From Octopus vulgaris (taxonomy: Eukaryota): a stretch of DNA of 64,000 bases. The DNA lies in assembly GCA_951406725.2 (NCBI GenBank), contig OX597816.1, forward strand, positions 29,884,001 to 29,948,000. The letters run 5' to 3'. Numbering within the stretch: the stretch's first letter is position 1; every line of letters begins with the position of its first letter. Of this stretch, positions 4,279 through 60,335 are shown in pieces. Under the pieces are notes generated by a model that was not told where the DNA came from, did no database searches, and saw only the letters and a program-made list of their open reading frames with translations. The translations under genes and the position numbers were made by a program.

Positions 4279-5589
4279 CACACACGCACATATGCTAACA
4301 ACACTTTCTGAGATTCCTTTCACTGCAATTTCCCATGTAAAGCAATATCACCAATACTAAAAGATCGCATTTTATGCAAATCGGGAAAACGCAACCTCGC
4401 TGAATGACACAAAAGCCATAAATGGTGAGTGTGTTTATAAGTGTATGTCACGTTCGCTTTTATCTTTTCTTCTCGAAAAGCCATTATTGTTAATTGAATT
4501 GTTAAGAAGTTCATTTCGTATCACGAGGTCACGCGATCGACCTAATTGTTTGGCATCATGGGCCACACATTTTCAATAAACCCACGTCTCCCCATACTTC
4601 GTGAATGAAATTAGGTCGACGAAAACGGTATAGAAGCCTGTCAAATGGGTTGAACCTGTAATGCAAAAGTGCAGCCTTGCCATACAGAGTGTCACGAAGT
4701 TTCTGCTTCGGAATTACATTAAGGGGACACGTGTCTTTAATACGCTCGGACGTCTACACGATAATTCAGGTGTATATAATTCAATTGATCGAATTCTCAA
4801 CGTCGATCGACAGAGATCTACTACCATAAATTCATACATACATACATACATACATACATACATACATACATACATACACACATACATACACACATACATA
4901 CATACATACATACATACATACATACATACATACATACATACATGCAAATATCATGTCCCTGAACATCATCTAGTTCGCTTCTATTCCCTTTGTACCAATG
5001 CCTAGTTTTCTCAGCTTGCTACCTAGGTCTTCGCTGAGGTTTTGTTTCACAATGTGCTGTTCCATTTTGCTGATGTTTAGTTGCTTGTTCGCCAACTTCT
5101 CTTGTGGTCACCGCCAGGACTATCGAGTAATATAAGAAACTTTGAAGTATTTAAATATTTTATAACGTCGACGAAACCAAAATGTTTCCTTCGTGATCTT
5201 GTGAAGGCGGTTGCCGATGCTGAGAAGAAACTCCATTATTTCGTTAACACAAGAATTGAAGATTAGTGGCTGTCTGTGTAAGGTCTTGAAAATATTTTGT
5301 ACTGAAGTTGTATACTATTGATTTCCCTTTTAATCCTTGGTATAGATATCTCATTAGAATTATTTCGACCTAAATTGTTACTAAATTTAAAGGGTAGTCA
5401 TGAGTCTTGACTGTACGTATGTAAACAGTGTTCTTAGCTAAGTTGACAATAGCTACTGGATTATGTTGGGTTCAGCGTAAGATTGTTTTCGTTATAACAT
5501 TTATAGTAAAATGCTATATTGATGAATATTTCTCTACGGCAAAAAAAAAGTTAACTCCATTGAAGCTGTAGGGTTCGGGTTCTCAGGCT

Positions 5590-5829
5590 TTAAATAATTT
5601 GTGAATTCACTTTCCGAGGTCCCTGTCGGCCGGGACGAGAATCTGTTGATTCTTTTCTTTGGCTTTTGAATTGCACTATAATTCTATTAACAGTGGCAAG
5701 AGGAAATTGAAGATTTTCGGCAATTTTTTGCTGGCTAAGACCAGCCTCAGATTGACCAGCTATGCGATCTCTTTGAAAATCTGATAGTTCTGCTGAATTT
5801 TTTGTGTGTGGCATGGTTACTCTCCGCAA
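5590..5829 (-). pseudogene. Tc1-family transposase N-terminal HTH fragment, copy 1
   Basis: [20 protein letters not shown]...[11 protein letters not shown]...TVNRIIVQF...RPGR matches the Tc1 paired-like HTH and GRPR-like motif; no DDE domain follows. Confidence 0.78.
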
Positions 5830-6138
5830 ATGTTTAATATAATGTCACCTGGAATGAAAAAGAATAATTACATTGTAAATTCTACACCGCTGAAAACATG
5901 TTAAAACGCTTATATCAGAAATTTTGAAAATTAAAGGTGTCTATTTACTTCCTGCATGTCTGTGTATATATTTAATTAGAGGATCCGAGGAAATACTGGT
6001 TCAATACCTAGTATTTTGGGGGAATGAAATTTCCATAAAACAATACTTGTATATATATAAAGCATCTGTGGGCTTATCAATTCATTTCAGCAGTCTGCTG
6101 AAATGAATTGACAAGCCCACATATAACACCCAAAGTTA

Positions 6139-6251
6139 CATCTTTTTTCTCTGATGAAATTATACTCAGGTCACATAAATGTAAACTTAATGTACACATT
6201 TGTAGCTAAATTATTGAGTATTAATTGAAACAGCTGTAAGAAGGAAAGATG
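6139..6251 (+). ncRNA. Type I hammerhead ribozyme (GUA site after 6238)
   Basis: Stem I CATCTTTTTTCT/AGAAGGAAAGATG; CTGATGA 6151-6157; stem II AATTATACTCA/TGAGTATTAATT; GAAA 6227-6230; palindromic stem III ACAGCTGT. Confidence 0.8.
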
Positions 6252-6804
6252 ACTAATTTGTTAATAATAATCAATTATTACATTCCTTATCTCCATTTTC
6301 TTTTTTTTTTTTCTAATATATATGTGAATGTTCAGTTTAGAAGGAAAGATCCAGAAGAACTGTTACAAGGTAGCCAGATGTCATATAAGCGTCCTAGAAA
6401 TTAGTAATCACACTTGGGTGGGAGTTAATTACGGGGAGAAGTGGTACGTGCTTTGGACAACACAAGAATTGAAGATTAGTGGCTGTCTGTGTAAGGTCTT
6501 GAAAATATTTTGTACTGAAGTTGTATACTATTGATTTCCCTTTTTAATCCTTGGTATAGATATCTCATTAGAATTATTTCGACCTAAATTGTTACTAAAT
6601 TTAAAGGGTAGTCATGAGTCTTGACTGTACGTATGTAAACAGTGTTCTTAGCTAAGTTGACAATAGCTACTGGATTATGTTGGGTTCAGCGTAAGATTGT
6701 TTTCGTTATAACATTTATAGTAAAATGCTATATTGATGAATATTTCTCTACGGCAAAAAAAAAGTTAACTCCATTGAAGCTGTAGGGTTCGGAGTTCTCA
6801 GGCT

Positions 6805-7044
6805 TTAAATAATTTGTGAATTCACTTTCCGAGGTCCCTGTCGGCCGGGACGAGAATCTGTTGATTCTTTTCTTTGGCTTTTGAATTGCACTATAATTCT
6901 ATTAACAGTGGCAAGAAGAAATTGAAGATTTTCGGCAATTTTTCGCTGGCTAAGACCAGCCTCAGATTGACCAGCTATGCGATCTCTTTGAAAATCTGAT
7001 AGTTCTGCTGAATTTTTTGTGTGTGGCATGGTTACTCTCCGCAA
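6805..7044 (-). pseudogene. Tc1-family transposase N-terminal HTH fragment, copy 2
   Basis: Duplicate of 5590-5829 with 2 amino acid changes. Confidence 0.78.
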
Positions 7045-7351
7045 ATGTTTAATATAATGTCACCTGGAATGAAAAAGAATAATTACATTGTAAATTCTAC
7101 ACCGCTGAAAACATGTTAAAACGCTTATATCAGAAATTTTGAAAATTAAAGGTGTCTATTTACTTCCTGCATGTCTGTGTATATATTTAATTAGAGGATC
7201 CGAGGAAATACTGGTTCAATACCTAGTATTTTGGGGGAATGAAATTTCCTTAAAACAATACTTGTATATATAAAGCATCTGTGGGCTTATCAATTCATTT
7301 CAGCAGTCTGCTGAAATGAATTGACAAGCCCACATATAACACCCAAAGTTA

Positions 7352-7464
7352 CATCTTTTTTCTCTGATGAAATTATACTCAGGTCACATAAATGTAAACT
7401 TAATGTACACATTTGTAGCTAAATTATTGAGTATTAATTGAAACAGCTGTAAGAAGGAAAGATG
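7352..7464 (+). ncRNA. Type I hammerhead ribozyme (GUA site after 7451), duplicate of 6139-6251
   Basis: CTGATGA 7364-7370, GAAA 7440-7443, ACAGCTGT-A, same stems. Confidence 0.8.
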
Positions 7465-7712
7465 ACTAATTTGTTAATAATAATCAATTATTACATTCCT
7501 TATCTCCATTTTCTTTTTTTTTTCTAATATATATGTGAATGTTCAGTTTAGAAGGAAAGATCCAGAAGAACTGTTACAAGGTAGCCAGATGTCATATAAG
7601 CGTCCTAGAAATTAGTAATCACACTTGGGTGGGAGTTAATTACGGGGAGAAGTGGTACGTGCTTTGGACAACATAAGAATAATGGAAAATGGAAATGAAC
7701 ACTGTTGTTTAC

Positions 7713-7799
7713 ATCCACTCTGATGAGATTGATGCATTTTTCCACATTCTTCTTCATCTCGGATTTATTGTAATGCATCCATCGAAACATGTCGGTGAT
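7713..7799 (+). ncRNA. Type I hammerhead ribozyme (GUC site after 7793)
   Basis: Stem I CACT/GGTG; CTGATGA 7720-7726; stem II GATTGATGCATT/AATGCATCCATC (11 of 12 paired); GAAA 7784-7787; palindromic stem III ACATGT then C. Confidence 0.82.
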
Positions 7800-7894
7800 A
7801 TGGTGATATAAATGATTTAAAGAACATCTTGAGCTTTTGTCTCCATTTTTCATTATTCTTATATATATATATATATATATATATAACTTATAAA

Positions 7895-8015
7895 TAAGGG
7901 CAAACGAAAAAAATTCTAATACCAAATATGCCGAAATTAGACACATTGTCCATAACCATATAATTTATCACAATAAGCACGTTACTCGAAAAAGGTCGAC
8001 AGAAATTTCTAAAAG
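7895..8015 (-). mobile_element. Decayed fragment of the repeat family seen at 48368-48801
   Basis: AGGGCAAA...CTAATACCAAATATGCCGAAATTAGACACA...AACCATATAATTTATCAC...AGAAATTTCTAAA aligns by eye to 48368-48485. Confidence 0.7.
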
Positions 8016-15973: not shown

Positions 15974-17131
15974 TATCTAATGTATTATTGCTTCTTCTTC
16001 AAGACGCCAGGCCATCATTTGAAGGAAATTTGACAGCTTTTCCTAGCAAGGCGAGCATCTCTTATAGAGAATATCACTTTTTTTCCCCTGTATATTTTTA
16101 TTGTTTAACTTCAAGTCAATCCTGAAAACTTTTGAGGATAAATCGATCCATTCCTGAGTATCATATTTTTAGACATGGTATATCCAGACTTACATCCTCC
16201 AGTAAGTCTTTTTATTTTGAGCATTAGAAACAATAAGGGAAACTCTTTTCAGTTTATTATTCTGCAAGTTATTGCAGTCAGATATCCCTCAAATTACACC
16301 CAGCTACTAGGTGAATGTACAAGTTTATATGAATATAGTGTAAGTGAATGAAAACAAGCCATGGCGTCGTTATTCAGTCCGCAGTTCGGTGGTGAATACA
16401 TGCTGTTTATTAAAATCAGACTATTATCTGATTTTTCTTGGGTGGATTCTTATCTTTCAGTGAGTAATGTCGGGAAAATCTTGGCAATTTAACCTAAATA
16501 ATGCTAGTTATTTTTTATACTACACTCACTTGAACTTCGAAATTTCGTCTTCCAGTATTCTCATGAGACTATATCGAATCGATATTTGGAAATTTAATCA
16601 TGTTTTCTTATTTTTTTGTGGTGGAAATTTTTGAAGAATATTTTAAAGTTTATGTCAGTTTTAATCGCTGATCATGAAACTAACTTTTCCTCTTACAAAG
16701 GTCATTGATGTGTTTTCGGAGTGGCTGCAGGTAACTTAGCATCACTTTTGGGGATAGTTGATCAATTAATTTCTGTGGTAAATTTCCCTGAAATGTAAGA
16801 TAATGAGAAAATTACGATTTGAACGTATAACGTAATAAAATATACAAGTAAAGCAAACACAATATTGATTTCAGATAATAGGAATAAAGATCAAAATATT
16901 GTGAAGAAAACAAGAAAAGACAGAATTGCTGTAACTATGAAAGGTTTAAAATAATGTTTAGAAATATAAAAAGAGAACAAACATGTTAACATAGAATTTT
17001 CTGTTTTGTAAAGTATGTTGTCTGGTCCAGTGGAGCGGAATATTTAATAAAAACAACATGATCTAAGACAGTTTCAAATATCTAAGAGGATTTTAGTTTA
17101 AGTATGTGTGTGTTTGTGCTTGCGTGTATAT

Positions 17132-17231
17132 NNNNNNNNNNNNNNNNNNNNNNNNNNNNNNNNNNNNNNNNNNNNNNNNNNNNNNNNNNNNNNNNNNNNN
17201 NNNNNNNNNNNNNNNNNNNNNNNNNNNNNNN
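17132..17231. other. Assembly gap (100 N)
   Basis: Run of N. Confidence 0.99.
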
Positions 17232-18020
17232 GAGTCTAAGTGGTCACTCAGTGGAATTTGTCGGTATTCCGGGAGATTTATTTGTTCTTTATGCACCGTT
17301 ACTCGTTTACGTAACGGGAGACTCGTTTGTCCCACATAATTATGTTGGCAACCAGCGCATGTGAGAACGTAGATAAGGTTCTCGGAGGAACAGGAGAAGT
17401 TAGTCTTGATTTTAAACTTCGTACCTTGTTTGAAGGTAAATTCAGAGCCTTCAAGTAGAAAGGGGCAGGTACCACAGTTTGAGCGTGCACATTTTTTTAC
17501 TGTTGGGGATGGATGTGGTGTGTGAAGTTTGGCATTTGTCAAGAGTTTTTTTTAAAGATTTGTGTTGCCTTTTGCATTTGAGGATTTTGTGTGTATTTAT
17601 AATGTTTTTCATTTTTGGGTCTGTTGACAGTAGACTGAGGTTTTGTATGATTGTGGTGTATGCTTCGCTATTTTTGGGGTTGTGGGTGGAAATGTATGGA
17701 AGTATTTTGAGGTTGTGTGTGGTGTTAGGTTGGGTGGTTTTCAGTGTAGTGTTGTCTAGTTCTTTGGCGCGTTTTATTCCATACTCTATAAGGGTGGAGG
17801 GATATTGACGTTGTAATAGTGTTTTTTTGAGGTCTTGAAGGCGTATTTCTCGTGTTTTTGGATCCGAGACAATGGTGCATACCCTTTTAGCTAAATTGAA
17901 AGGGATATTTGTCTTGGTGTGTTTTGGGTGGCATGAACTAAAGAGGAGGTATTGTTGTGAGTCTGTAGGTTTGTGGTAGATGTCTGTTATGATTTGGTTC
18001 TTAGGTGTTTTTATAATTAG
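17232..18020 (-). mobile_element. Neptune-like Penelope element fragment: RT thumb, Zn linker, GIY-YIG
   Basis: TDIYHKPTDSQQYLLFSSCHPKH...IPFNLAKR; KCARSNCGTC; NLIYVLTCAGCQHNYVGQT...R...H; one frameshift in an A run near 17545; cut by the gap. Confidence 0.9.
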
Positions 18021-18073
18021 GAGATTCTTTTTTTCCCCTTTCTAATTTTCAAAAAAACTTCTTAAAACATAAA

Positions 18074-18439: not shown

Positions 18440-19110
18440 TAAATCTAATATTCTCCTGCCCTTCTTTAATACCGGTTCCCATATGCTATTCATATCTGCA
18501 TTCAGTCTGCTTAGGAGGTTGTTGTGTCCTAACATATGTGCTGCTTCTTTTAGTTTTCATATTTTCCAGTGTAGTTCTCTCTCTATTATGTTAAGTTCAT
18601 TCCACAGTGGGAGATGGTCTCTATTTTTCCATACATGATCAGCTATACCCGATTTATCAATATTTCCTCGTGTCACAGCTTTGCGATGTTTGTCTACCCT
18701 TGTTTTGAAGGGGTGGCATGTTTCGCTTTTGTATAACCTACCACAGCTGCATAGGATGAAGTACACGCAGTCTTTGGTCATATTCTCTTCTATTGATGGT
18801 TTTACCCGAAGGAGATATGTGCGAAGTGTTGTATTACTTTTGAATACTGTCTTGATGTCATATAGGCCGCATACCTTTTGTATCTCTTTCGAAGAGGCCT
18901 TTCACATAGGGTAAACAAACTGTGGACAGTTTATTGGCCTCATCCTCTCTCTTCTTCATAACTGGAGTCGATAGTGTACTTTGGGGATAGTTGTTGCTTA
19001 ACAGATCGTTATTGAGCTTGATCATTTCTTCGTGGTGTGTATCACGATTGCTACTTATATAATTTGTACTATGTTTTAGGCACTGAGCAAAAAGCACGAT
19101 GAGAACAATA
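18440..19110 (-). mobile_element. Penelope/Poseidon-like element 3' fragment with GIY-YIG
   Basis: LLSNNYP...VCLPYVKGL...CVYFILCSCGRLYKSETCHPFKTRVDKH...SGIADHVW...KLKEA; decayed. Confidence 0.88.
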
Positions 19111-19111
19111 T

Positions 19112-19605
19112 CCATTGAGTGCAAATAATGTAAACAATGTAAATAATGCACGTAATTCCTCATCTTTTAAATATAGAACTGTATTATCTAATCGGTACGG
19201 AGCCGACATTAGACTTCAATGGAGATATATAGAGAAACTCCATCAAAAACTAGCTCATCTTTCAAACCATCTAACTTTCTTATGTAGATGTAGAGACTTG
19301 GCTTGAATATAATGACACCAATCGATTATTCACATAAAGCTAAAAGAGTAACGGAAAGGACAGGACATGCCCTCGTCCGTGAGCGGACCCATTACAACCG
19401 CTGGAAAAACATGAATTAAATAACGAAATCAAAGACAGGTTATCTTCATTACTTAGAAAAACAACCAGCGATGATGATAGAAAGGGATTCCAACAAGATC
19501 TGGAAAAGTCGTACAAGAAAGAATTTGCAAGAATTTGAAGAAATGCCAGATTAAGAAGTTTATGAAAATCATAGGTCAGAGAATGAAGACTGAAATCCGT
19601 CACCC
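19112..19605 (+). mobile_element. Penelope terminal-repeat tail plus N-terminal ORF fragment, inverted relative to 18440-19110
   Basis: RYGADIRLQWRYIEKLHQKLAHLSNHLTFLCRCRD...ALVRER...QIKKF resembles PLE N-termini; first 70 bp shared with 19764-19827. Confidence 0.75.
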
Positions 19606-19957: not shown

Positions 19958-21040
19958 GTAATGGAAATAGCTAACTCCATTCACCAAAGTTTCAAGATAA
20001 CTGTAGATTACCCCACTAAGCACCCCAACAATAGACTCCTCGTATTGATACTGAACTTTGGTTAGAGACAGTGAACAATAGACTGCAGCTCCTCCACTCC
20101 TATTACATGAAACCTATAGCTTCAAAATATGTTGTTCACAAGAACTCATCTTTGTCACACAACATGAAAATTAATATACTGATAGCAGACTTAGTTAGGA
20201 TAATGAACAACGTGTCCCTACTATGCGAACGCTATGAAATGAGAAAGCATATACAAAACTTCATGCGCAGCATGCGGTTTTCTGGATATGATCAGAAAGA
20301 TAGGGTTCGAGTATACAGGGGTGCTAGTAGGAAATTAGATAACATTATACATAATGATACAAGTGGTACCTGCCCTAGATATAGAAACAAAGACTGGAAT
20401 TGGATACAAAGAAATTGTGACAAAACAAACAGGGCGAACACGTGGTATAAAACTGACAAATATCGGGGAGTGATGTTTGTAGAGGCCACAGCCCATGGAG
20501 AATTAGCCCGTAGATTTAGAAAAGCTCTGAAGGAGACCAAACTCAACATTAAGATTGTTGAAAAGCCAGGGAACTCCGTCAGATCACAAATATGTAGGAC
20601 GTACCCCTTTGAGAATACCATATGCACTAATGATAACTGCATGATATGTAGGATTAGCTCTGGCATTAACTGTAGAACTAGAAATGTAGATTACAGCATA
20701 AGATGCATAGAAGGTGCTTGTAAAGACATGAACATGACGCACATAGAGGAGACATCTAGGAGCATTGCGTAACGACAAAATGAACATCTGAGACAATATG
20801 ACAACAAAAAACAGTCCTCCATACTCTACCAGCATGCCAAAGACCACCATGGAGGCAACTTGGGTCAACTTGATATCCGCATCATATCCAAGCACCCAAA
20901 AGACCCAACACTCAGACAAGTACGGGAGTACGTCCGTATAAATGAAACTTCCCTAATACTAAATAGGAAATATACATAGTAGATATCATACCCCCATACC
21001 CACAGTTTACACAGGTAGAGTAGAATAGTTAGTAGACTGT
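19958..21040 (+). mobile_element. Naiad-like Penelope element, 5'-truncated (RT C-terminus plus GIY-YIG)
   Basis: IANSIH...VDYP..HPNNRL; YYMKPIASKYVVHKNSSLS...K; SGY; WY..MFVEAT; CTNDNCMIC...C...YSIRC...C...ETSRSIA*RQNEH...RQVRE...LNRK; microsatellites on both sides. Confidence 0.75.
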
Positions 21041-24717: not shown

Positions 24718-25283
24718 TCAATGAGATGAGTTTCTCTGTATAAGAATGTTAGGATGGTTAAGTTCAGGCTTATATTTTTCAATGAAGAATATTTCCTTGT
24801 TTAATCTAATTTGGGTTAGTGTTCCAATAGCACATTGATAGAATGGAAAGATTAAAAATTGTGGTAGTAGTTGCTTTGCGCATTTCTCAATATGCTCACT
24901 AAAGGGTATCATTCTGTATTCTGGGAATGCAATCTGTTGTCGATGCAGAGTGCATCTGCATCTGAGTGATAATCCCGTGGCCCCTACGTAGTTTTGGTGG
25001 CAGCCCGAGCATCTTATGACATAAATTATGTTTTCAGAACCACAAGTAAAATTAGATTTGATCTTGAATTTTTGTCCTTCTTTGAAAAGGAATTCTGATC
25101 CTTCTAGAAGATTTGGGCATGTTGCGCAGTTTGGTCTACCGCATTTTTTAACTTTTGCATCCGTAATTTCAGAAAACAATTTTGTTTTTGTGAGAATCTT
25201 TTTTAGTGATTTAGGTTGTTTGTAGCTTTTAATGATTTTATGTATGTTTAGAATTTCCTTTAATTTAGGGTCCTTATGAAGTA
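24718..25283 (-). mobile_element. Neptune-like Penelope element 3' fragment (GIY-YIG)
   Basis: KCGRPNCATC...NIIYVIRCSGCHQNYVGAT...R...HRQQI...E.FFIEKYKPELN. Confidence 0.9.
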
Positions 25284-25342
25284 TAATTTAGGGTCCTTAT
25301 GAAGTATAATTTAGGGTCCTTATGAAGTATAATTTAGGGTCC
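25261..25342. repeat. 23-bp tandem repeat, ~3.6 copies
   Basis: TAATTTAGGGTCCTTATGAAGTA repeated. Confidence 0.93.
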
Positions 25343-27942: not shown

Positions 27943-28044
27943 TTCTTTTAATTTTATTTCAGTTACTTTGCCCGACACCTAGAGCAAAGAAACTCACCGC
28001 ATTCCTTGGTAGGCTATTAAAATAAAGACACATATATAAAGTCA

Positions 28045-28740
28045 TGTGATAGAAAAAGAAGATCACAAGGCATACTCATGTCAGTCAATAGACAAACTTT
28101 ATTGTTTTGGTTTTTCACAACAATATCTGTTTTATTAGCTTTGATGATCCAGTCTGTACATACTGGTAAGTCCCAAAGAATCGTTACATTTTTTCCCTCA
28201 GTTACAGCCTCAGGATGGTGCTTGTACCATTTGTCAGCACATTTGATTTTATAATACCGACATATTTGCCAGTGTAGATATTGGCCAACTCTGTCATGCC
28301 TTGATTTGTACTCAACAGGTGCTAAAACCTTACACTCAGAGATTAGGTGGTTCCTTGTTTCAATCCTATCGTTACAGTATCGGTACTGTGGGTCTACTCC
28401 ATTTTTCATCACAGTGGCTTGGTAATTCCAAATGCTCTGATCTTGAGCAGCTAAGATAAAGCCTTCACTCTCTGCCTTTAGCCCTGAGCTCCGTAGCCGC
28501 TGATAGGTGTGCTTCTGGTCTATATCAGCTTGTTTGCTACGGGCCGCATATTTGTCGTGCAGAGGGGTTTTTTTTCACACCAATCAGCCAATTGTTCAAA
28601 CGCATTTTGCTTTGCCATTAATTTCACTCTCTTTGTAACTACATTAGTTCCACTTCACTCACGCTGTTCAACCTGAGTATCATGCATGAACTCACTAACA
28701 GCTTTTTTTGCTCCCCTTTCTGACAGAATGAAGCTTCTTA
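28045..28740 (-). mobile_element. Decayed R4/Dong 3' fragment (zinc knuckle and restriction-like endonuclease)
   Basis: LRSSGLKAESEGFILAAQDQS...YC...ET..HLISEC...YKSRHDRV...ILWD...ANKTDIVV...D. Confidence 0.88.
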
Positions 28741-48333: not shown

Positions 48334-48364
<31 letters not shown>

Positions 48365-48497
48365 GTTAGGGCAAAAGAATAGATCTCTAATGCCAAAATA
48401 TACCGAAAATAGACACAACGTCAAAAACCATGTAATTTATCACTACAAGCACGCGTTTCGAAGAAAGCCGATAGAAATTTCTAAAGAAATCCCGTTA

Positions 48498-48558
48498 TTA
48501 CCATATCGGACCCGATTTCAGAGTTAGTTCATAAGGACCTTCCCTTCATCAGTGATAA
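48498..48558 (-). ncRNA. Type I hammerhead ribozyme (AUA site), left arm
   Basis: TTATCA-CTGATGA-AGGG..CTCT-GAAA-TCGG gt CCGA-TA-TGGTAA. Confidence 0.75.
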
Positions 48559-48611
48559 ATGCGACAAAGAAATAAGTGAAATACTTATACCCACTTATTT
48601 CTTTGCCGCAT

Positions 48612-48672
48612 TTATCACTGATGAAGGGAAGGTTCTTATGAACTAACTCTGAAATCGGGTTCGATATGGTAA
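48612..48672 (+). ncRNA. Type I hammerhead ribozyme (AUA site after 48666), right arm
   Basis: CTGATGA 48618-48624; stem II AGGG/CTCT plus GGTTC/GAACT; GAAA 48651-48654; stem III ATCG/CGAT; stem I TTATCA/TGGTAA. Confidence 0.75.
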
Positions 48673-48887
48673 TAACGGGATTTTTAAAGAAATTTCTATC
48701 GGCTTTCTTCGAAAAGCGTGCTTGTAGTGATAAATTACATGGTTATTGACATTATGTCTATTTTCGGCATATTTTGGCATTAGAGATTTTTCTTTTGCCC
48801 TTACTTATAAATTGTTTATAAATTTAACCTTTAAAGGTAATTTTAAATATGTTGGCCATTGATAGAATTTTTTTCGAAAAATTTCAA

Positions 48888-49258: not shown

Positions 49259-49460
49259 CTACATTAGATGTTAATTTAATAGTATTCACTTCCGCACTCT
49301 CTCACTTTACGCGAGTTTTTAGTTCGAATCGCACCTGTCTCGAGATGGGCTGGAGAGTTTCTATTTTTGGATATATTTGGGGTACTTATTTGTGCTCATG
49401 ACTTAGTGTTCGCTTCTTCCATGGTTATAAGTAAGCATTTCACTTATTTCTTTGCCGCAT

Positions 49461-49521
49461 TTATTACTGATGAAGGAAAGGTTCTTATGAACTAACTCTG
49501 AAATCAGGTCCGATATGGTAA
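49461..49521 (+). ncRNA. Third copy of the same hammerhead, with stem mismatches
   Basis: CTGATGA 49467-49473, GAAA 49500-49503; lies in a repeat copy spanning ~49425-49545. Confidence 0.62.
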
Positions 49522-49714
49522 TAACGGGATTTTTTTAGAAATTTCACTCACAAGATATCTAATCTATAGCTGCAGGGATATATCTAAAATGCAATGCATT
49601 GTCATCGAGTAATGAACCACGTGAGTACTAAGAGGACACCTTATCCCGCACATCCGTATCTCAAACTGAATCAACGTAAAATTAAATTACCTAGCAATAT
49701 TGGTTTTAAATCTT

Positions 49715-59604: not shown

Positions 59605-60335
59605 CAATTTCTTTATTAACCATGAGGTTGAGAAAAAGCGGGGACGATACGCAGTCAGACAAAACAAACATTGGGGTCAGGGTATCGAATGAGACGAAAC
59701 GTATGAATAAACAAACAATTAAAATATATACAACTAAATGAGAATGAGTGATTTACAAAAAAATAGAAGCGGAGGACACGGTCGACCCCACAAACCACAT
59801 ACTCACACTGAAGACTTTGCTTTCTCCTTTTTATATTCTCGATTAAACAGGTTCTTTCACTCGCAACATACTTGCTATAGACTTCCATCTTTTACGAAAC
59901 ACACTTTGCGACAGGCATTTCTTCTCCAGCCTTATTTTCCGTTTCATGTGGAAAACGAAAAAGTCGATTAGCTCGAGACTGGAGATGAACATGCCTGTTG
60001 CAATTCCTTCCATTCTCGTCTTCCATACTACCTCTTTCGCTACAGCAACTACCAAGAGAAAACAGGCTCGCTCCTCCCTATTCAGGGAGGTCGGCGAAAC
60101 GATCTTAATTACAGATTCGCTCGGCAGTCGTACTCTTCTCGACTGCAACAGCAGGTGTTCGACATAAGCCCAAAGCTCAGTCACCTTGGGGCATTGCACA
60201 ATCGCGTGCAGGACAGTTTCCCTGTCCTGCTCGCATCTTACACAAACCGGCAAAGGTGCACACCCATGTCTAAAGAGCTTATCTCGAACCGGTAAAGCTC
60301 CTCTGTAACATTGCTAGGCCAGGAACTTTTAGTAA
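59605..60335 (-). mobile_element. L1/Tx1-clade LINE 3' fragment
   Basis: GALPVRDKL...CVRCEQDRETVLHAIVQC (CCHC zinc finger)...VW..R; 3' UTR ending AATAAAG. Confidence 0.85.

Follow-up and report, generated by a model that had tools for sequence, protein, structure and literature searches.

Hammerhead ribozyme motifs in and beside a 1213-bp tandem repeat of Octopus vulgaris as probable terminal-repeat remnants of two dispersed Penelope-type families

Introduction

Do two hammerhead ribozymes (HHRs) in consecutive units of a tandem repeat mark a retrozyme, or can older mobile-element debris give the same layout? The question is raised by a 64,000-nucleotide (nt) stretch of the Octopus vulgaris genome (assembly GCA_951406725.2, contig OX597816.1, positions 29,884,001 to 29,948,000, forward strand; this whole stretch is called the window here). 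Three HHRs (HHR1, HHR2 and HHR3) lie there in and beside a 1213-bp tandem repeat, for which an initial annotation proposed a retrozyme-like layout. The analysis makes it highly probable that these HHRs are terminal-repeat motifs of two dispersed families of Penelope-like elements (PLEs), designated A and B, which piled up as short and partly inverted retrocopies, and that the tandem is a later, DNA-level product, whether of a private duplication or of faulty assembly. The two families, the mosaic build of the unit, a repeat end that cuts a family B copy, and family B parents with reverse transcriptase (RT), CxCX5C and GIY-YIG motifs were all found.

Results

A descriptor scan of both strands of the window detected six type I HHR motifs, with cores at 6151, 7364, 7720, 48618 and 49467 on the + strand and at 48552 on the − strand; helix III was a perfect palindrome in three of the six. 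After 200 rounds of dinucleotide shuffling in 1-kb blocks, the window contained 0.06 HHRs on average and never more than 1; the observed number is far above chance. HHR1 (6137 to 6251, +), its identical copy HHR2 (7350 to 7464, +) and HHR3 (7713 to 7802, +) had the conserved core and helices I to III that define type I. The CUGAUGA segment started at 6151 (6151 to 6157), 7364 and 7720 (7720 to 7726), respectively, and the GAAA segment at 6227 (6227 to 6230), 7440 and 7784 (7784 to 7787), with helix II spans of 69, 69 and 57 nt. These positions confirmed the proposal of three co-oriented + strand HHRs with complete cores and a long helix II. Helix III was ACAGCUGU in HHR1 (6230 to 6237) and in HHR2 and ACAUGU in HHR3, and the cut triplets were GUA, GUA and GUC. 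Cuts were predicted after 6238, 7451 and 7793, which reproduces the proposed spacings of 1213 and 342 nt.

The tandem repeat was present as described, with copy 1 (5246 to 6469) and copy 2 (6459 to 7680) sharing 99.18% identity over 1226 columns; the copies differed by four mismatches (5702, 5729, 6035 and 6463) and four indels (5327, 5578, 6050 and 6301). Its unit was a mosaic of single-locus DNA, a Tc1-like piece, a family A remnant and 154 bp of a family B tail. The single-locus DNA at the unit start (5246 to 5560, again at 6459 to 6774) matched only its two copies in a search of the whole 2.8-Gb genome, and the 31-nt tandem junction occurred once, so that the genome search suggested in the initial annotation did not recover the unit elsewhere. 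(All genome-wide searches covered this 2.8-Gb genome; candidate counts are first-look numbers, and 40 candidates were scored for each of families A and B.) The Tc1-like piece (5610 to 5971, −; again at about 6824 to 7186) was a truncated, one-ended copy, about 360 bp long, of a Tc1/mariner-like non-autonomous element of about 590 bp with 1376 candidates, and it retained one terminal inverted repeat at about 5921 to 5968. An antisense remnant of a Tc1-like helix-turn-helix (HTH) open reading frame (ORF) at 5590 to 5829 (−; Pfam HTH_SB, E value of 9e-06, below the curated cut-off) agreed with the antisense Tc1 fragment that had been noticed in the unit.

The remainder of the site consisted of PLE-type pieces. 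The family A copy lay between TA runs and comprised a 3' tail in the opposite orientation to the hammerhead part (5983 to 6064, −, adjoining a TA run; again at about 7198 to 7277), a hairpin at the inversion point (6064 to 6124, again at 7277 to 7337) and a forward piece resembling a pseudo-long terminal repeat (pLTR) and carrying HHR1 (6092 to 6315, +). It was followed by the family B tail (6316 to 6469, −), all 154 bp of which lay inside the unit and which was cut by the duplication junction. At the other end of the repeat, an inverted family B 3' tail (7527 to 7703, −) extended past the repeat end at 7680 and was joined to a forward pLTR piece with HHR3 (7695 to 7862, +), a (TA)n microsatellite that is the likely insertion target (7860 to 7887), and a tail of family C, a third HHR family, that lacked its hammerhead (7872 to 8013, −). 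As the family C tail lies just beyond the TA run, three PLE-type insertions have accumulated here at TA runs.

The ends of the repeat indicated the order of events. Family B tails reached 7689 to 7703, across the end of copy 2 at 7680, in 24 of 25 matches, and on the tandem junction they ended at 6468 to 6470 in 14 of 16 matches. Since the repeat end falls inside a family B insertion, the 1213-bp tandem is likely younger than the insertions. Microhomology was present at the junction (6459 to 6469), with AACACAAGAAT at 5246 and 6459 and AACATAAGAAT at 7670; it extended to 10 of the 11 bp that had been claimed.

Family A had 1367 candidates genome-wide, and its best other copies were 80 to 89% identical. 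The arrangement of HHRs was examined in 27 loci of about 3.2 kb for each family, which were the best-scoring and hence non-random ones, with overlapping loci counted once. Family A HHRs were single in 18/27 loci, had an inverted HHR partner in 9/27 and a co-oriented partner in 0/27. The forward piece started within about 10 nt of the window site (6092) in 23/27 loci. This shared start, about 60 nt before the hammerhead core in 23/27 copies (L003-L030), represents either a fixed 5' end or an inversion site. A longer form started about 230 nt further upstream, immediately after (TA)n. Two PLE proteins used as tblastn queries detected no RT or endonuclease in the 30 family A loci that extend furthest 5', and no common unique sequence was found in these loci beyond the 5' start point. 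Family A is therefore likely, on its sequence, to be non-coding and about 360 or 590 nt long, with a rare coding parent being possible. It had marks of a PLE (a pLTR-type HHR, inverted 5'-truncated pieces in 9/27 loci, and TA-run flanks) and would be a non-autonomous passenger of Hydra-type enzymes. A stretch common to L094 and L103 was considered as a family A coding part and was rejected, as it was another repeat; this repeat of about 680 bp lies beside family A copies in L094 (−) and L103, and its inverted ends in L103 adjoin TA runs.

The HHRs had been described as apparently intact. Their cores were complete, which is unremarkable for HHR1 and HHR2, as 32 of 50 family A copies among the loci analyzed retained the strict core; at a per-site divergence of about 8%, complete family A cores would require no selection. 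HHR1 and HHR2 carried A10.1-U11.1 where the conserved pair is G-C.

Family B had 436 candidates, and its HHRs were single in 19/27 loci, with an inverted partner in 7/27 and a co-oriented partner in 0/27. Upstream of the HHR, longer copies carried a linker of the CNCGPNKTC type and a stretch resembling GIY-YIG. The CNCGPNKTC-type motif was detected in seven distinct loci, five of which had a family B match (L048, L051, L062, L064 and L070), and was followed, at the motif level only, by VYQC...Y/FIG-like motifs. RT remnants with the DKT motif were observed in L066 (QSDKTGN) and L064 (QSDKTGS), with an endonuclease region and a family B HHR downstream, and the CxCX5C linker was present in L064. 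Both an HHR in the 3' repeat and insertion at (TA)n, as expected of the Hydra clade, were found. On these motifs, and on visual comparison with the published Hydra-1_Obim protein, the family of HHR3 is identified as a Hydra-type PLE, and the link to Penelope terminal repeats drawn in the initial annotation is upheld.

Conservation of the family B hammerhead was limited. Helix III was ACAUAUGU in 22/36 copies, and the ACAUGU of HHR3 is a shortened form of it that arose by a private 2-nt deletion; hence palindromes were present as stated, but that of HHR3 is specific to this copy. A complete core was retained in 8/36 copies, and cores were conserved no better than flanks (0.89 versus 0.92). A G8-to-A change was seen in 14/36 copies (L032-L072), which suggests, on the sequences compared, that a family B sub-family spread with a broken C3-G8 pair.

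A related young family of Hydra-type PLEs (L073 1035-4044, L074 and L075) had three full-length matches and an intact 778-codon frame. This frame contained RWL, DKT, YRDD, GIY-YIG-like, CxxC and CxH motifs and had no CxCX5C linker; its CLLC at residue 738 and CKH at 766 are candidates for the CxxC and CxH that adjoin the conserved E and N in the Hydra clade, where a CCHH motif is lacking. In L073 the ORF lay between direct repeats, each with a hammerhead that had a CCGAAGA core (U4C), a 56-nt helix II and the helix III ACAUAUGU; the helix II z-scores were −4.3 and −3.7. Family C was represented in the window by a head-to-head palindromic pair of HHR repeats (48334 to 48826, cores at 48552 on the − strand and 48618 on the + strand) and by a third copy at 49467 (49440 to 49545), with a 26-nt helix II and a 12-nt helix III region. 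It had 3241 candidates, with best copies being 92 to 96% identical, and no coding parent was seen in 20 loci.

The nature of the duplication was examined with contigs from seven public runs, six of them DNA or unlabelled and from five studies with four organism labels; such contigs show presence and not absence, and one run is possibly the source of the assembly. The left boundary at 5246 was crossed unbroken by contigs of X2 and X3 (4952 to 5654) and the right boundary at 7680 by those of X1 (7497 to 7779), X4 (7427 to 7818) and X5 (7514 to 7818). Long contigs of X1, X2, X4 and X5 aligned on copy 2 only from 6459, with other sequence before that point, which in X2 was the left flank; an X8 contig matched up to 6469 and continued with 123 letters unlike the window. 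The letters of copy 2 were found at 5327 (X2, X3 and X15), 5578 (X2 and X3), 6050 (X2) and 6301 (X8), and X1, X2, X4 and X5 had no gap relative to copy 2 within 6459 to 6869. Copy 2 agreed with the contigs of other samples, and as the runs carry its letters, the four indels of copy 1, absent from all of the compared runs, are private. Three of these four lay in homopolymers or TA runs, where read errors would also be expected. The junction at 6459 to 6469 was unbridged among the contigs listed for the seven runs, in these presence-only data, and next to no cover was found at 6462 to 6560. No RNA run was listed as containing this sequence. X15, a run guessed to be RNA, gave one contig of depth 5 (5184 to 5379) and many repeat contigs and was not used as evidence of expression; contigs reveal neither the strand nor the ends nor the abundance of an RNA.

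Both boundaries would also exist in a duplicated allele, in which a path through the junction would normally break contigs at these points. The contigs of the other samples look as a single copy would make them look. The caveat raised at the outset, that the repeat is an ordinary DNA duplication or two haplotypes assembled in tandem, is supported. An assembly artefact and a real private duplication were judged to be nearly balanced, with the artefact slightly favored.

Elsewhere in the window, remnants resembling other Penelope-type RT-thumb and GIY-YIG frames were recognized by eye at 17096 to 18041, 18560 to 19166, 20035 to 20769 and 24721 to 25287, as were LINE-type reverse transcriptase and related remnants at 3 to 1151, 28020 to 28574 and 59846 to 60313 (all −). 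A 100-N scaffold gap occupies 17132 to 17231, 9 kb away from the tandem. No tRNA genes were found in the 64-kb window, and no host exons were recognized by eye among its ORFs of at least 100 amino acids.

Discussion

Could the motifs be chance matches within AT-rich repeats, or does the tandem represent a genuine family of non-LTR retrozymes, retrotransposed as a dimer of a monomer that at 1213 nt is unusually long? A chance origin would agree with the weak whole-motif folding z-scores (−1.85 and +0.24) and with Rfam, which at gathering and E-value thresholds called no HHR family on the window motifs and gave only miRNA-like chance matches, on the hairpin at 6064 to 6124. Six descriptor matches are set against a shuffled mean of 0.06, and the same architecture recurs in both terminal repeats of the intact 778-codon element and downstream of the RT-endonuclease remnants of family B; the shuffle counts and the intact element rule chance out, and its probability is negligible. 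As to a retrozyme, the working criterion is a type I HHR in consecutive units with a period limit of 1000 bp (bioRxiv 10.64898/2026.07.22.740005), and HHR1 and HHR2 do occupy two consecutive tandem units (at least two being called for), which agrees with this criterion save for the period. The unit is indeed longer, as had been pointed out, than the 150 to 450 bp of retrozyme monomers (PMC7229834). It is not a dispersed multi-copy mobile unit with arrays, as its unique part and its junction occur only at this locus; it is a mosaic that ends within family B, its flanks continue pre-existing sequence on both sides, and neither family showed a tandem in its 27 loci. The single-locus unit and the repeat end inside family B largely rule out a long-monomer retrozyme, which is scarcely credible, and the retrozyme-like layout is not upheld. 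As HHR3 comes from another family and another insertion, the 342-nt piece has no status as a unit either.

A different reading accepts the debris and supposes that the duplication is real and made an accidental double hammerhead: in a + strand read-through transcript, HHR1 and HHR2 would swap helix III, and a 1213-nt RNA would be cut out and might circularize, as a by-product or as a nascent retrozyme. Both cores are complete, helix III is a perfect 8-nt palindrome with a predicted self-duplex of −11.1 kcal/mol, and animal type I HHRs are known to cleave as dimers, retrozyme dimers doing so well (PMC7229834). In the fold model, which covers secondary structure only, the double hammerhead was 3.4 kcal/mol better than two monomers, but it lay 6.6 kcal/mol above the free minimum, and the swap had a probability of 0.001. 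In the modeled 6040-to-7480 transcript, C3-U4-G5 of the cores paired with the helix III CAG at probabilities of 0.81 and 0.99, an inactive fold. The shortened helix III of HHR3 had a self-duplex of −4.6 kcal/mol versus −7.0 for its family, and it was unable to pair with that of HHR2 (−0.3). Metazoan PLE HHRs show little cleavage in vitro, even as dimers (PMC4209133), and cleavage of the anole Poseidon HHR requires its protein (PMC11167929); moreover, the other samples look single copy. Cleavage at this locus is possible, according to the model, given a + strand transcript, and an accidental double hammerhead is improbable. Still more doubtful, and very unlikely, is a retrozyme at birth, in which a private 1.2-kb duplication holds a working Penelope-derived double hammerhead that releases a circularizable 1213-nt RNA of host DNA and transposon debris; if this were true, a simple duplication of DNA could suffice to turn solo pLTRs into retrozymes.

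An origin of the HHRs from dispersed PLE families, with a later DNA-level tandem, would be explained by the following course of events. A Tc1-like element would have inserted at a TA, and Hydra-type RT/endonucleases would then have placed short retrocopies of families A, B and C at neighboring TA runs, accompanied by the 5' inversions that PLEs typically show. Later, 1.2 kb would have been doubled through microhomology, either in the cell or during assembly. The HHRs would have served the parent elements, by protein-assisted or dimeric cleavage of element RNA, and would be decaying here, where they likely have no role.

Several points weigh against this account. A family A coding parent was found neither by a motif scan nor by reading of L094 and L103, and family A core columns were somewhat more conserved than the rest (0.96 versus 0.89), a difference taken from best-scoring loci and from a remainder that includes indel-prone columns. 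Pfam and PDB gave no match for the RT/endonuclease proteins of these elements, so that the Hydra call for HHR3's family stands at the motif level. At 5702 the family letter is present in copy 1 and not in copy 2, a pattern that two real alleles would explain as well as errors, and the runs included no identified reads of the assembled individual.

Comparison with known systems places the families among the PLEs. Hydra-clade marks are DKT, CxCX5C, a C-terminal endonuclease, (TA)n targets and HHRs (PMC8557442, section 11). The window families share with this clade the C-terminal GIY-YIG, DKT, CxCX5C, (TA)n, a sense type I HHR in the 3' repeat and inverted 5'-truncated pieces; they differ in the 8-nt palindromic helix III and in that no ORF was found for family A. 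Hydra-1_Obim, an octopus element listed in the supplement of Craig et al. 2021 (PMC8557442), is another family, with a different HHR sequence and a short helix II. Helix II spans 56 to 69 nt here, whereas none of the 26 Hydra rows of File S2 exceeds about 26 nt; a non-Hydra row of that file, marked as deviant, reaches about 52 nt (PMC8557442). Six short motifs of the present families were not found in that supplement, in which long protein runs are cut short. The metazoan PLE HHRs of Cervera and de la Pena 2014 (PMC4209133), described both as single motifs and as inverted pairs, are alike in being mostly single motifs from truncated PLEs with a small palindromic helix III, presumed to act as dimers, and in having opposite-strand pairs 100 to 700 bp apart; unlike them, helix II is far longer here and A10.1-U11.1 replaces the conserved G-C in HHR1 and HHR2. 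Animal non-LTR retrozymes (PMC7229834; bioRxiv 10.64898/2026.07.22.740005) also have type I HHRs in consecutive tandem units, low GC and a likely PLE origin, but the window unit is 1213 bp rather than 150 to 450 bp, is a one-locus mosaic of older insertions, and has no arrays. Retrozymes are expressed as self-cleaved RNA in linear and circular form. The Tc1-like piece resembles Tc1/mariner non-autonomous elements in its HTH remnant, terminal inverted repeats of about 50 bp, TA flank and very high copy number; unlike them, it is a fragment with a single end and is incidental to the unit.

PLE terminal-repeat HHRs and octopus Hydra-type elements were known, and the long helix II is a small new point. 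Three families combine a helix II of 56 to 69 nt with an 8-nt palindromic helix III. A Hydra-type HHR with such a helix II was not found in the parts of the literature searched, and the supplements of other papers may list some; the available part of the octopus repeat annotation (PMC13282606) does not mention hammerhead, ribozyme or Hydra. As descriptors with short spacers and Rfam miss a long helix II, the number of HHRs in genomes of this kind is probably underestimated. Where HHR remnants are scattered by the thousand, any local duplication or assembly error will look like a retrozyme dimer, and calls of tandem HHRs need a test of unit copy number and of junction support. If the duplicated pair did cleave and circularize, the formation of a retrozyme out of PLE debris would be seen directly at this locus.

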